Shown in pieces: positions 1 to 44,869 of a stretch of 64,000 nt of DNA. Both the position numbers and the translations under genes were made by a program. The stretch is from an uncultured Pseudomonadota bacterium (GTDB lineage: Bacteria; Vulcanimicrobiota; Vulcanimicrobiia; Eremiobacterales; Eremiobacteraceae). The number at the start of each line of letters is the position of its first letter. Position 1 is the first letter of the stretch. The notes under the pieces are model-generated. The model saw nothing but the letters and a program-made list of their open reading frames with translations, was not told where the DNA came from and searched no databases. The stretch spans positions 736,001 through 800,000 of the forward strand of contig CAVTNB010000001.1 in assembly GCA_963736005.1 (NCBI GenBank), in the 5' to 3' direction.

Positions 1-1229
1 AGGTCGATTGCAGCCGCACGCGTGAGGCGGCTTCGTCCATGAGATCCACTGCCTTATCCGGCAAGAAGCGATCCGTGATGTAGCGATCGCTGAGACGAGC
101 CGCTGCGTCGAGCGCCTCGTCGCTGATCTTCACCCGATGATGTGCTTCGTAGCGGTCGCGCAGACCCTTGAGGATTTCGATGGTCTCCTCGACCGATGGG
201 CTCGCCGACCATGATCGACTGAAAGCGGCGCTCCAGCGCCGAGTCTTTTTCGATGTGCTTGCGAAACTCGTTGAGCGTGGTGGCGCCGATGCATTGCAGT
301 TCGCCTCGCGCCAGTGCCGGCTTGATGATGTTGCTCGCGTCAATTGCGCCCTCGGCGGCGCCCGCGCCGACGAGGGTGTGCAGTTCGTCGATGAAGAGAA
401 TGATCTCGCCGCAAGCGCCACGGATTTCATCCATGACGCGCTTCATGCGCTCCTCGAACTCGCCGCGATATTTGGTGCCCGCGACGAGGCCGGCAAGGTC
501 GAGTGTGATGACGCGTTTGTCGCGCAAAGGCTCGGGCACATCGCCACTGATAACGCGCTGCGCCAAACCCTCTGCAATGGCGGTCTTGCCGACGCCGGGC
601 TCGCCGATGAGTGCCGGGATTGTTCTTCGTTCGCCGCGAGAGGATCTGGATGACCCGCTCGATCTCGGTGTTGCGACCGATGACGGGATCAAGTTTGCTC
701 TCGCGAGCAAGTTGGGTAAGATCGCGGCCGTAGGCGTCGAGCGTCGGCGTTTTGCTCTTGCCTTTGCTCGTGCTTTGTACTTGTGTTTCCGCTCCGAGCA
801 GCGAGGTAGTCTGGACGCGTACCTTCGCAGGATCGACGCCCAGGTTCGTGAGGACGCGGGCAGCGACGCCTTCGCCTTCGCGAATGAGGCCGAGCAGCAG
901 GTGCTCGGTGCCGATGTAGTTATGGTTGAGCTGACGCGCCTCTTCGAAAGCGAGTTCGATGACGCGCTTGGCTCGCGGGGTGAACACCATCTCCTGCTGG
1001 ACGGTCTGCCCGCCTCGACCGACGATCGCTTCAACTTCGGCGCGAACCTTCGCCAGGTTGACTCCTAGAGTTTCCAACACTTTGGCGGCCAGGCTCTCGC
1101 CTTCGCTGATGATGCCGAGCAGGATGTGTTCCGTCCCGATGTAGTTGTTACCGAGCCGCTGCGCTTCTTCTTGTGCCAGCACGATTGACTGCGGCGCGCA
1201 CGCTCGGTGAACGGTTCCCACATGGACAT
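1..1229 (-). pseudogene. clpC: ATP-dependent Clp protease ATP-binding subunit ClpC, 5' part; runs off the window; three frameshifts as sequenced (possibly sequencing errors)
   Basis: Stitched frames give [90 protein letters not shown]. Extra bases near 1187, 616 and 197. AAGGAG RBS at 1241-1246. Confidence 0.9.
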
Positions 1230-1405
1230 TGTTACTTTGACTCCTTGGGCGCGCTACGGGACATCGTGCCCGATTGACCGCCTAGTTGGCGGCCCTTACT
1301 CCCGCTTGTATGTTCGACAGCTAGCTCTTGTTCTTCTTTTCCCTCTTTTGTGATTAACGTTGCAGGGTGCGCTTCCGGTTCACAGTTTCATTATCGGCAA
1401 AGGAA

Positions 1406-1583
1406 AAGCCTCAAGGATCACGGTCCGTGCTGTACTGGTGCCCGATATTCTCAGGATGACGTATCGGCTTTCGGTCGATTGGTAGTGCCAATCGCTACGC
1501 CCGGATTGCACAATCCGGATGCGGGTTCGTCGCTCGACCCGCTCGCCGATCAGTACGCCTTGGAGCGTGGCCGCTTGAGGCCT
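1406..1583 (-). ncRNA. Candidate structured ncRNA of ~178 nt (6S-sized; family unassigned)
   Basis: Closing stem 1574-1583/1406-1415, nested stems 1551-1556/1432-1437 and 1545-1550/1463-1468, three internal hairpins. 5' end coincides with the predicted TSS; U-rich tail. Confidence 0.6.
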
Positions 1584-1589
1584 ACCGCG

Positions 1590-1618
1590 ATAATACTTGC
1601 GACCTCGCTGCGTGTCAA
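1590..1618 (-). promoter_or_regulatory. sigma70-type promoter TTGACA-N17-TATTAT
   Basis: -35 at 1613-1618, -10 at 1590-1595, 17-bp spacer. Confidence 0.75.
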
Positions 1619-1669: not shown

Positions 1670-3205
1670 ATGTCCTCTACACAATCTTCCCAGCCAAGGC
1701 CGCAACATCGCGTCGCAATTGCAATTGGGTCCAATCTTGGAGACCGTCAGGGCAATGTGGGCGCTGCTATCCACAGGCTGCGCTCGTACGTGACGATCGA
1801 TCGTCTTTCGTCCACGTATGAAACAAAGCCGGTCGGCTTTACGGAGCAACCTGACTTCCTCAACCTCGCGTGCACCGGATGGACGACCTTGGCGCCTCAG
1901 CGGCTGCGGGATGCAATGGCGAAGATCGAGCGCCAAATCGGGCGCCGGATCAGCGTGCCTTTGGGGCCGCGCGCGATCGATTTGGATCTTTTGCTCTATG
2001 ATGACGTCATATCGAGCGACCAAAGTTGTACAATTCCGCACCCTGGATTGGCCACGCGAGCATTTGTTCTCGTCCCCCTAGCGGAGATCGCACCCGAACT
2101 TGTCGATCCGCGATCCGGAAAAACAATCGGTGAACTTGCTGCAACCATCGACCGGTCTGGTGTGACGATTCGCGAAGGCGGTCTTTTGACTCGCACGCGA
2201 CGCGACGTCCAAGAATCCAGACCCCAAGTACCTCTGGCGCTCAATCGAGTGGGCATAACCGGCGTCAAGACGCTGATCAACCTGGAGAACGATGCTATCG
2301 GAGGGCAAGCAAGCTTCGCGACTCTCGATATCTACGCTGATTTGGACGCGGGCCACAGCGGCGTGCACATGTCGCGTTTCTCGCAGGATCTCGAGGATGC
2401 GCTCGCAGACCTGCGCCTGGAACGCTTCGGCATTGATGGGCTTGCACTGGCCCTCGCGCAACGCGTGGTGGAAAGTCAGAATGCGGAGCGGGCTGAGGTC
2501 CACTTGACCGCCCCGGTTGCCCTCGAGCGCTTCACCCCGGTGAGCGCGCTTCGCACGCGTGAGTTCTATACGGCGATCGGGCGCGCGGCAGTTACTCGTC
2601 GCTTTTCACGCCGGCTCCTTGGCGTCGAAGCCGAAGGTATGACTGCCTGTCCCTGCGCGCAGGCGATGGTTGCCGACTACTCACGCGAGCGGCTCCTCGC
2701 TGAGGGTTTCTCTGAGGAGCAAGTGGCCAAGATCTTGGCGGCCATCCCAGTTGCGACGCACAACCAGCGCGGCGTCGGAAGGCTCCTTGTTGGTTCCGAG
2801 CGGCCCGTTTCGCTCGCGCAGCTCGTTGAAATTGTCGAGCAATCGATGTCTTCAGAAACGTATGATTTGCTCAAGCGCCCGGACGAGTTGTTCGTCGTCA
2901 ACAAGGCACATCAGTCGCCGCGCTTTGTCGAAGATGTCGTGCGCGAGATGCTTCGCTATGTGAACGACGCGCTTGTCGACTTTCCCGGCGACACCTTTGT
3001 CTTCGCCCGACAGATCAATTTCGAGAGCATTCACAAGCACGATGCCGTGGCCGAGTCTTGTTGCACGCTTGACGAACTGCGCCGCGAGCTTCGCGGCCAC
3101 ACCGACGTTGGGCACACGAGCCTCGAGCAATGGATGCATGGTGACGCCAAAGGTCTTGGGGCGACTTTCCAAGCGCCCCCTACAGATTTCGAGAAATCTC
3201 TATGA
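1670..3205 (+). CDS. folK-folE2: Fusion of HPPK (FolK) and GTP cyclohydrolase IB/MptA family (FolE2)
   Basis: N-terminal IAIGSNLGD..SSTYET..GPRAIDLDLL..IPHP. C-terminal GVHMSR, TACPCA, THNQRG, LLKRPDE, PRFVEDVVR, ESIHKHDA. Confidence 0.9.
   Translation: MSSTQSSQPRPQHRVAIAIGSNLGDRQGNVGAAIHRLRSYVTIDRLSSTYETKPVGFTEQPDFLNLACTGWTTLAPQRLRDAMAKIERQIGRRISVPLGPRAIDLDLLLYDDVISSDQSCTIPHPGLATRAFVLVPLAEIAPELVDPRSGKTIGELAATIDRSGVTIREGGLLTRTRRDVQESRPQVPLALNRVGITGVKTLINLENDAIGGQASFATLDIYADLDAGHSGVHMSRFSQDLEDALADLRLERFGIDGLALALAQRVVESQNAERAEVHLTAPVALERFTPVSALRTREFYTAIGRAAVTRRFSRRLLGVEAEGMTACPCAQAMVADYSRERLLAEGFSEEQVAKILAAIPVATHNQRGVGRLLVGSERPVSLAQLVEIVEQSMSSETYDLLKRPDELFVVNKAHQSPRFVEDVVREMLRYVNDALVDFPGDTFVFARQINFESIHKHDAVAESCCTLDELRRELRGHTDVGHTSLEQWMHGDAKGLGATFQAPPTDFEKSL
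3158..3184 (-). repeat. GTAG-hairpin REP family B, in frame within the FolE2 C-terminus
   Basis: ggggcgactttccaagcgccccctaca. Confidence 0.65.
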
Positions 3206-44793: not shown

Positions 44794-44869
44794 TGGCTCC
44801 CCGAGCTGGACTCGAACCAGCGACATTCTGATTAACAGTCAGACGCTCTACCAGCTGAGCTATCGGGGA
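44794..44869 (-). tRNA. tRNA-Asn(GTT)
   Basis: tccccgatagctcagctggtagagcgtctgactGTTaatcagaatgtcgctggttcgagtccagctcggggagCCA; 76 nt. Confidence 0.97.

Follow-up and report, generated by a model that had tools for sequence, protein, structure and literature searches.

Complex bacterial RNAs of obscure function, such as raiA, OLE, ROOL and similar ones, have repeatedly proved to be ribozymes, sensors or parts of ribonucleoproteins. 6S RNA, which binds the sigma-70 holoenzyme and serves as template for pRNA, is mostly double-stranded and forms an extended rod whose large bubble in the middle imitates an open promoter, and the 6S, Ms1 and raiA-motif RNAs are thought to bind a protein or a ligand in trans. 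The raiA motif RNA of Bacillota and Actinomycetota is an abundant, single-copy, structured RNA of ~200 nt with riboswitch-like conservation and its own promoter and terminator, which lies before raiA in 66% of cases, yet hundreds of nucleotides away (PMC10861870). Here we describe an RNA element located between clpC and a folate gene in the genome of an uncultured bacterium of the family Eremiobacteraceae. The window analysed is a stretch of 64,000 nucleotides (assembly GCA_963736005.1, contig CAVTNB010000001.1, positions 736,001 to 800,000 of the forward strand), and the positions given below are those of the window. We lean, by a little more than an even chance, towards reading 1583-1406 on the minus strand as a gene in its own right, encoding a stable small RNA that is highly structured and belongs to a new family. 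On the sequence evidence, the element is best read as a new, previously uncatalogued family within a known general kind of RNA, namely structured bacterial small RNAs that are self-contained.

Among the described RNAs, the raiA motif RNA is the closest analogue in behaviour (PMC10861870). The two RNAs are alike in size, in being single-copy, in their type of conservation, in usually standing before a stress gene at a distance, and in having a promoter of their own and a terminator, a predicted one in the element. In contrast, no Rfam match in sequence or structure connects them. Moreover, the raiA RNAs vary in orientation and context and occur in two phyla, whereas the RNA described here always has the same orientation before clpC and occurs in one bacterial family. 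Similarly, the element resembles the taxon-restricted orphan RNA motifs that comparative genomics has yielded, for example the candidates in PMC5737381, in having a covarying structure known from sequence, a distribution limited to one lineage and no assigned function; unlike those, it is not in Rfam 15. A literature search, with supplements outside its scope, found no published description of the element.

The gap between clpC and the folate gene is 440 bp, and the RNA lies inside it on the minus strand, with the following parts:

1590..1618, minus strand: sigma-70-type promoter, with the -35 element TTGACA at 1618-1613, a 17-nt spacer and the -10 element TATTAT at 1595-1590
1406..1583, minus strand: the RNA, ~178 nt, from +1 near 1583 to the end of P1 at 1406
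1574..1583, minus strand: 5' strand of helix P1, AGGCCUCAAG, pairing with 1406-1415
1406..1415, minus strand: 3' strand of P1, CUUGAGGCUU, pairing with 1574-1583
1562..1567, minus strand: 5' strand of P2, CGCUCC, pairing with GGACCG at 1421-1426 around a conserved C-C mismatch
1421..1426, minus strand: 3' strand of P2, GGACCG, pairing with 1562-1567
1551..1558, minus strand: 5' strand of P3, GCGUACUG, pairing with CAGUAC-A-GC at 1429-1437
1429..1437, minus strand: 3' strand of P3, CAGUAC-A-GC, pairing with 1551-1558
1545..1550, minus strand: 5' strand of P4, AUCGGC, which with GCCGAU closes the four-way junction
1463..1468, minus strand: 3' strand of P4, GCCGAU, pairing with 1545-1550
1521..1542, minus strand: hairpin P5, GCGGGU...ACCCGC, with a variable loop
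1500..1519, minus strand: hairpin P6, UCCGGAUU-GUGC-AAUCCGGG, with a four-base loop
1494..1499, minus strand: junction strand J6/7, CGUAGC, near-invariant
1477..1493, minus strand: hairpin P7, GAUUGG...CCAAUC, with a variable loop
1469..1476, minus strand: junction strand J7/4, GACCGAAA, conserved, with CGAAA invariant
1441..1455, minus strand: hairpin P8, CCUGA...UCGGG, a branch on the 3' side between P4 and P3 whose length differs among genera
1399..1407, minus strand: U-run UUUUCCUUU, directly after P1, candidate termination point in the window genome

A consensus scan of 1100-1800 returned one sigma-70-like site only, with 11/12 matches (0.3 expected in shuffles), and its position places +1 at about 1583/1582. 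The P1 helix begins 1-2 nt from this predicted start, its 10-base 5' strand opening at 1583, 7 nt past the -10 element. Across the homologous loci introduced below, TTGAC[AGT]-N17/18-TANNNT is kept in all 48 of the 48 that have upstream sequence, the letters of the spacer drifting, and the distance from the end of the -10 element to GCCUCA is 7-8 nt. A first-pass annotation of this DNA, made from the letters, had proposed TTGACA-17-TATTAT on the minus strand with +1 at ~1582-1583, and both the scan and the 48/48 loci bear this out. Other stable RNA genes of the same genome are preceded by sites of this type: TTGACC-N17-TAGAAT, also sigma-70-like, lies 11 nt before the gene for the transfer-messenger RNA (tmRNA), and visual inspection showed weaker sigma-70-like sites in front of the genes for 6S RNA and RNase P RNA.

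On the minus strand, 1400-1585 folds with a minimum free energy (MFE) of -79.9 kcal/mol (z = -4.46), and 0/200 shuffles fold as well. The structure comprises eight helices, namely the closing P1, the rod P2-P3, the three-way branch P8 and the four-way junction P4-P7. Most of this architecture had been read off the letters in the first pass: the 10-bp closing stem (AGGCCUCAAG at 1583-1574 with CUUGAGGCUU at 1415-1406) and the nested stems GUACUG/CAGUAC (P3) and AUCGGC/GCCGAU (P4) are present in the computed fold, and the three hairpins assigned to the junction are found at 1521-1542, 1500-1519 and 1477-1493. What had been taken for a one-sided bubble is instead a further hairpin, P8, at 1441-1455.

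Comparison among relatives supports this fold. Covariation was counted on a 52-pair, eight-helix structure in a model-guided alignment (A2) of 58 rows, 47 of them distinct. The paired cells amount to 96.1%, against 93.4% in 500 shuffles and 27-48% in slid controls, and 15/52 pairs are changed on both sides, against 8.7 +/- 1.4 in the shuffles, 0/500 of which reach 15, and 2-8 in the slid controls. The covariation score is 0.126, compared with 0.081 +/- 0.003 in the 500 shuffles and not above 0.045 in the slid controls. The first-pass annotation had suggested looking for conservation and covariation in relatives, and both were found, in 58 loci and in these 15 pairs.

The double changes fall mostly in P3 (5/8 pairs, for example UA 41 / CG 6), P5 (3/6 pairs, UA 33 / CG 11) and P7 (3/6 pairs). 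P2, with 5 pairs, is 98.7% paired and has 1 pair changed on both sides; P6 is 93.4% paired with 2 such pairs. In P8 the CCC/GGG base is kept, and the outer pairs are only 81.7% paired because fixed alignment columns cannot follow the changes in length. The 8 core pairs of P1 are 100% paired in the 47 distinct sequences, 6 of the 8 being invariant, and P4 is 100% paired with a nearly invariant sequence; thus P1 and P4 are uninformative for covariation either way. An extra outer pair of P1 (alignment columns 2/195) does covary, with AU 33, UG 6, GC 4 and GU 1. Pairwise covariation of all columns revealed no pseudoknot or further helix, yielding scattered single pairs that track clades and one more P1 pair. 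The junction strands (GA, CGUAGC and GACCGAAA) and the internal loop of P2 are near-invariant, while the hairpin loops vary freely in sequence and length. Indeed, 5/6 columns of J6/7 are invariant, the remaining one being a C/U position with one U in 25 sequences and one U in 47. We also observed A-C oppositions at inner positions of P6 (window 1504-1515) in 10/47 and 15/47 sequences, which may be tolerated or protonated A+-C wobbles, or a conserved irregularity of the helix.

The first-pass annotation had cautioned that wobble pairs did not settle the strand. As far as energies are concerned the caution was justified: the plus strand folds about as well (z -3.68), and over the 47 distinct sequences its mean MFE is -82.0 kcal/mol against -80.5 for the minus strand, which is the better one in 15/47. 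Taken as a whole, the evidence points the other way. The consensus pairs of the minus strand include 52 G-U against 10 A-C, and the consensus energy of the alignment is -54.3 for the minus strand against -47.5 for the plus strand. Because of this excess of G-U over A-C, together with the conserved promoter and the minus-strand terminators with their T-tails, we settle on the minus strand.

A 230-nt query occurs in a single copy in the window's own genome. BLAST detected the element in 24/24 other genomes of Eremiobacteraceae, covering 10 genera at 72-99% identity, and returned only one 24-nt, chance-sized match from 16 genomes of the rest of the class. Matches in the divergent genera run from query 42-45 (1584-1581) to 218-230 (1408-1396), and these limits coincide with the predicted ends of the RNA. 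With R1, a covariance model derived from 25 sequences, the window genome and each of the 31/31 other genomes of the family (32 in total) give a single forward match over the full length, scoring 158-203 bits; 119 other genomes of the class and 141 other genomes of the phylum (together 260, overlaps kept) give none. Moreover, a pattern of two invariant blocks was compared with 185,579 species, one genome each, giving 30 loci. Full elements account for 26 of them, all in Eremiobacteraceae genomes, and 4 are chance matches (L058, L067, L071 and L081). The true matches carry the labels Candidatus Eremiobacteraceae, Eremiobacter or Vulcanimicrobiota, with a few other labels of metagenome-assembled genomes. 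A second pattern led to 27 metagenome contigs, every one of which (27/27) has the full-length element; viral contigs gave 0 matches to the pattern. Across all 58 loci, the R1 matches range from 153 to 203 bits. As far as these searches reach, the sequences suggest an element confined to the family Eremiobacteraceae (candidate phylum Eremiobacterota / Vulcanimicrobiota).

The Rfam 15 library holds 4227 models, which we take to include raiA, Ms1, EAR, Y RNA/YrlA and all riboswitch classes. At the gathering score, its only match in the whole window is a tRNA at 44797-44869; at E<=10 nothing matches in 1150-1750, and at E<=1 nothing matches in 16 divergent homologous loci. The first-pass annotation had hesitated between a divergent 6S RNA and an undescribed RNA with its own promoter, and had proposed a search with the 6S, Ms1 and riboswitch models of Rfam. 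That search turned up no match even at E<=10, which, with the promoter kept in 48/48 loci, supports the second option. The first did not survive: the window genome has a canonical 6S RNA elsewhere (RF00013, 83.8 bits against a threshold of 46.4 bits, at C1:1843467-1843652 on the plus strand, locus L026), and the fold has eight branched helices without a central bubble. That canonical 6S RNA gene is followed by a hairpin terminator (GGCCCGGTCGATCGACCGGGCC-TTT). The same genome encodes, at other places, the RNA of the signal recognition particle (SRP RNA, RF00169, 72.3 bits), tmRNA (RF00023, 166.7 bits) and RNase P RNA (RF00010, 260.7 bits), and a divergent version of any of these three was rejected on this ground.

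Behind P1, the U-rich tail reported in the first pass can be read directly from the sequence as UUUUCCUUU at 1407-1399. At least 5 U within the 8 nt after P1 are present in 28/49 distinct loci, the window genome included. In 18/49 loci a hairpin distinct from P1 (dG <= -9), ending in a T-rich tail and typically reading GGGAGGG-loop-CCCUCCC-UUUU, stands 17-55 nt after P1, and the same rule gives 4/49 on the reverse complement and 3/49 in shuffles. One locus has both signals and 45/49 have at least one. A stricter rule, demanding perfect stems and no fewer than 5 T of 7, calls only 6/49, and the energy-based rule was used instead. When whole transcripts of the 18 loci with a separate terminator were folded through it by MFE, P1 with the full fold and the terminator coexisted in 17/18. 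No conserved alternative (antiterminator) pairing was found, and the coexistence of fold and terminator argues that there is none in the loci with a separate hairpin.

Between P1 and the clpC ATG the sequence is unconserved except for one promoter-like motif, beside which a second can be seen in the window:

1312..1345, minus strand: candidate clpC promoter GAAGAAC..N..GTCGAAC, with GTCGAAC at 1318-1312, 89 nt before the clpC ATG
1355..1381, minus strand: second motif resembling promoters of extracytoplasmic function (ECF) sigma factors, GAACC-N17-CGTTA, seen by eye

The layout of the conserved motif is (A)GA(G)GAAGC, about 15 nt, then CGTCGAAC(A), GGAAGC-like letters being usual ~15 nt upstream of GTCGAA. 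GTCGAA occurs in the spacer of 48/49 loci, 11-93 nt before the ATG; L004 has its only copy 11 nt from the ATG, and in the others the distance is no less than 29 nt. With the laxer G[TC]CGAA, at least 21 nt before the ATG, 48/49 rows can be anchored (none for L004), and their consensus is aGA.gaAg..N..cGTCGAACa. This resembles ECF-sigma promoters, whose consensus we take to be GGAAC-N16-17-CGTC/CGTT, and we infer that it is a candidate ECF-type stress promoter of clpC. It is not a CtsR box, because CtsR (PF05848) is found in 0/81 genomes of the class. Genome-wide, GTCGAACA occurs 148 times where 76 copies are expected; most of these lie in coding DNA and follow a three-base periodicity, so it is not a general promoter element. 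GAACC-N16/17-CGTTA was seen by eye in 5/6 representative spacers (genera g1, g2 and g6), with one AAACC-N16-CGTTC in g8. In addition, ~30-50 nt upstream of the SRP RNA gene of the window genome (locus L113, G000:C1) lies GGTCGAACATACAGTCGAACC, a doubled GTCGAACATAC 11-mer, the same as before clpC.

The RNA is also represented in sequencing libraries. Twenty-four public runs share words with 1000-1720, 18 of them recorded as RNA and all with small shares, and the contigs of four runs were aligned, among them these three:

1412-1580: contig of run X1, 169 nt, aligned end to end with 1 difference
1413-1568: contig of run X4, 156 nt, aligned end to end with 0 differences
1424-1572, followed by Illumina adapter: contig of run X6, 171 nt, depth figure 279, with 0 differences

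Contigs of three soil RNA studies therefore lie wholly inside the element, and those of X1 and X4 have 3' edges only 1 nt apart (1412 and 1413) and no loose end there, which is a weak hint. X4 also contains a contig of 158 nt that exceeds the likeness threshold in its central 37 nt only, and its loose ends would fit the form of the RNA in genus g5. The spacer at 1275-1399 and the region 1600-1720, which takes in the promoter and the beginning of the folate gene, have no contig cover in the four runs, a lack that carries no evidential weight. The heavy cover at 1108-1148 inside clpC consists of short contigs, each with 2-4 differences, which we take to come from many organisms and to be uninformative for the window genome.

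A promoter, an RNA, a predicted terminator and a clpC with a candidate promoter of its own together suggest that the element is a transcription unit of its own. In the mechanism we propose, the near-consensus sigma-70 promoter would produce an RNA whose ends lock in P1, giving a discrete and stable molecule. Depending on the genus, transcription would stop at the U-run next to P1 or at the separate hairpin, in either case shortly after the fold, and clpC would be driven mainly by its own stress-type promoter. The RNA would work through its three-dimensional fold and junction core, most likely by binding a protein or a small ligand in trans. Such a fold-dependent mode is suggested, rather than an antisense seed, because the junction strands and internal loops are invariant and every hairpin loop is free. 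An invariant core with free loops is the pattern of protein- or ligand-binding RNAs and of ribozymes, and the raiA motif RNA has been interpreted along the same lines (PMC10861870). That the element always lies next to clpC may point to a connection with proteostasis or be no more than local synteny.

Several points weigh against a self-contained gene acting in this way. The RNA stands in the same-strand position of a cis-regulator, upstream of clpC in 58/58 loci, and the trans-acting, fold-dependent mode is one that we infer solely from the pattern of conservation. By the criteria used, 4/49 loci have neither U-run nor hairpin. A simple terminator scan of the window calls no canonical terminator behind the RNA; such a scan misses P1 with its U-run because P1 is no plain hairpin, and termination there in the window genome is presumed. 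The folding energies give the minus strand no advantage over the plus strand. The library contigs cannot show strand, ends or level, and in run X5 a 637-nt contig of a relative extends from the 5' half of the RNA (1488-1596) across the promoter into upstream sequence, so that this library holds DNA or transcripts not confined to the element. Finally, three of the family genomes (G008, G011 and G013) are flagged as unpublished, and without them the counts become 21/21 for BLAST and 28/28 for R1.

The strongest of the other explanations is a cis-acting attenuator or riboswitch of clpC, in which the junction would sense a ligand or protein and the formation of P1 would decide between termination and reading on into the gene. 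In all 58 loci the RNA is on the same strand as clpC and upstream of it, 121-282 nt from its ATG, and divergent from the folate gene. However, the folate neighbour is as constant as clpC, and synteny therefore cannot discriminate a leader from a mere neighbour. Like the riboswitches that terminate transcription, the element lies 5' of a gene on its strand and has a multi-helix junction closed by P1 with a terminator signal behind; its invariant junction core with variable loops is aptamer-like, the U-run directly after P1 in 28/49 loci means that the stability of P1 could set termination, and the window scan found no second sigma-70 promoter before clpC. Unlike for those riboswitches, no antiterminator pairing was found for it and it matches no known aptamer class, and its spacer is long, unconserved and equipped with a conserved promoter-like motif of its own. 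Moreover, where a separate terminator is present the hairpin coexists with the complete fold in 17/18 loci, the library contigs lie wholly inside the element (a weak point), and the 3' strand of P1 is complementary to the ribosome-binding region of clpC in only some genera. This last complementarity, to CUCAAGG at the ribosome-binding site in ~17/48 rows by eye, also led us to reject an anti-Shine-Dalgarno role of the P1 3' strand for the family as a whole. With a non-competing terminator and no conserved alternative pairing, a switch cannot be the mechanism across the family, and we consider the attenuator unlikely; what weight it keeps comes from its linkage to clpC, which has no exception, and from the U-run next to P1 in 28/49 loci. 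The suggestion from the first pass that this might be a leader controlling clpC thus stands in respect of position and strand in all loci; against it are the RNA's own stop signal in 45/49, the missing competing pairing and the unconserved spacer with its promoter-like motif.

It is also tempting to speculate about a new sensing RNA for the Clp machine, whose junction would bind a signal (a metabolite, ClpC or an adaptor) and whose P1, as a terminator stem, would tune read-through into clpC, or about a small ribozyme or the RNA subunit of a particle. We hold this to be somewhat less likely again than the attenuator. If the sensing version were true, an AAA+ unfoldase would be under the control of a riboswitch-like or autoregulatory RNA, and for this class of genes we know of no RNA sensor.

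A trans-acting, base-pairing small RNA (sRNA) using the conserved single strands CGUAGC and GACCGAAA as seeds would account for the promoter and terminator, the small size and the abundance in RNA libraries. The unpaired stretches that are conserved measure no more than 6-8 nt and lie within multi-helix junctions, the hairpin loops vary freely, and eight covarying or invariant helices exceed the structure that seed-type sRNAs need; we regard this possibility as improbable.

Hardly any better placed, and if anything a shade less probable, is a processive antitermination RNA of the put or EAR kind, whose nascent fold would modify the polymerase so that it reads through the terminator into clpC. 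The strict linkage to clpC and the order of promoter, structured RNA at +1, terminator and gene, seen in 45/49 loci, would suit it. The HK022 put and Bacillus EAR RNAs, too, are structured RNAs at or near +1 with terminators before the downstream genes; the element differs from them in being unrelated in sequence, much larger and more branched than the two-hairpin put RNAs. Furthermore, Rfam, whose library presumably contains EAR, gives no match, a separate promoter-like motif precedes clpC, and in two studies the contigs reach no further than the 3' edge of the element, none bridging into the spacer, which is weak evidence.

A second, highly divergent RNA of the 6S or Ms1 type that sequesters RNA polymerase is very unlikely. 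The element shares with 6S RNA its length of ~180 nt, termini held in a long closing helix, a strong promoter of the housekeeping type and the behaviour of a stable RNA. The 6S reading fails because the 6S model does not match (RF00013 neither at E<=10 here nor at E<=1 in the 16 divergent relatives), because the architecture is branched, with a three-way and a four-way junction at the centre in place of the central bubble, and because the role of 6S is already filled by the canonical RNA elsewhere in the genome.

Folate genes are known riboswitch targets, and on the plus strand, which folds about as well (z -3.68; mean MFE -82.0 against -80.5) and on which the A-C mismatches of P6 would be G-U, the element could be a leader or riboswitch of folK-folE2 ending 87 nt before its ATG, but the 52 to 10 ratio of G-U over A-C and the consensus energy favour the minus strand, the conserved -35/-10 elements and T-tailed terminators are all on it, and neither strand has an Rfam match, so that we give this idea almost no credence.

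The genes around the RNA, and the one other RNA gene called in the window, are the following:

1..1229, minus strand: clpC, with the start codon ATG at 1229-1227, running off the window edge
1670-3205, plus strand: fused gene for HPPK (FolK) and GTP cyclohydrolase I FolE2, 511 aa (PF01288 at 1e-34, PF02649 at 1.4e-65)
44797-44869, minus strand: tRNA gene, the sole Rfam match of the window at the gathering score

In the window assembly clpC is broken across four frames (open reading frames 1065-1229, 427-1221, 54-1034 and 2-430), the first frameshift occurring already after codon 13. Five genomes from f2 and f3, two neighbouring families, have unbroken reading frames of 841-878 aa for this gene; Eremiobacteraceae relatives match the N-terminus without breaks over residues 9-202, and the intact clpC of one relative (L012) encodes Clp_N, AAA and AAA_lid_9 domains according to Pfam. 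The window genome assembly has 84% completeness in only 6 contigs, and the split clpC looks like the product of small insertion or deletion errors of long-read assembly rather than a pseudogene. On the other side of the RNA, the FolK-FolE2 fusion is kept throughout Eremiobacteraceae; a gene for an S41 peptidase follows it (Pfam).

In five genomes of other families the regions upstream of clpC have other neighbours, and no comparable element lies upstream of clpC in any of the five. One such region (L125, genome G030 of family f2) has an array resembling repetitive extragenic palindromes ~150-450 nt upstream of clpC, made of short CCTGTCGAAGGATGAG / CCCTTCGACAAGCTCAGG units in both orientations. 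We considered that the RNA might replace the control of clpC by CtsR and McsB and rejected this, since the McsB/CtsR profile fails to separate the families that carry the RNA from those that do not: searches of 32 genomes of Eremiobacteraceae and 48 of f2 gave no McsB (PF00217). It was found only in the one genome of family f3 (G038, L123/L128), where a McsB-like PF00217 protein-arginine-kinase gene lies directly before clpC, an adjacency as in Firmicutes.

The known range of the RNA is narrow, a single family of an uncultured phylum. To our knowledge, there is no experimental RNA biology for Eremiobacterota, a phylum that is widespread in soil and of which hardly any members have been cultured. 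Thanks to the consensus sigma-70 promoter and the compact size, expressing and probing the RNA in vitro or in E. coli should be straightforward and need no culture of the host, and the covariance model R1 together with the 58-sequence alignment A2 provides the basis for a family entry. If our reading is right, the few complex bacterial RNAs listed so far, raiA, OLE, ROOL and similar ones, are joined by a new family. Moreover, the element accounts for a 440-bp intergenic region that had seemed empty across the genomes of the family, and its position beside clpC offers a first concrete hypothesis, that the RNA may be linked to protein quality control.

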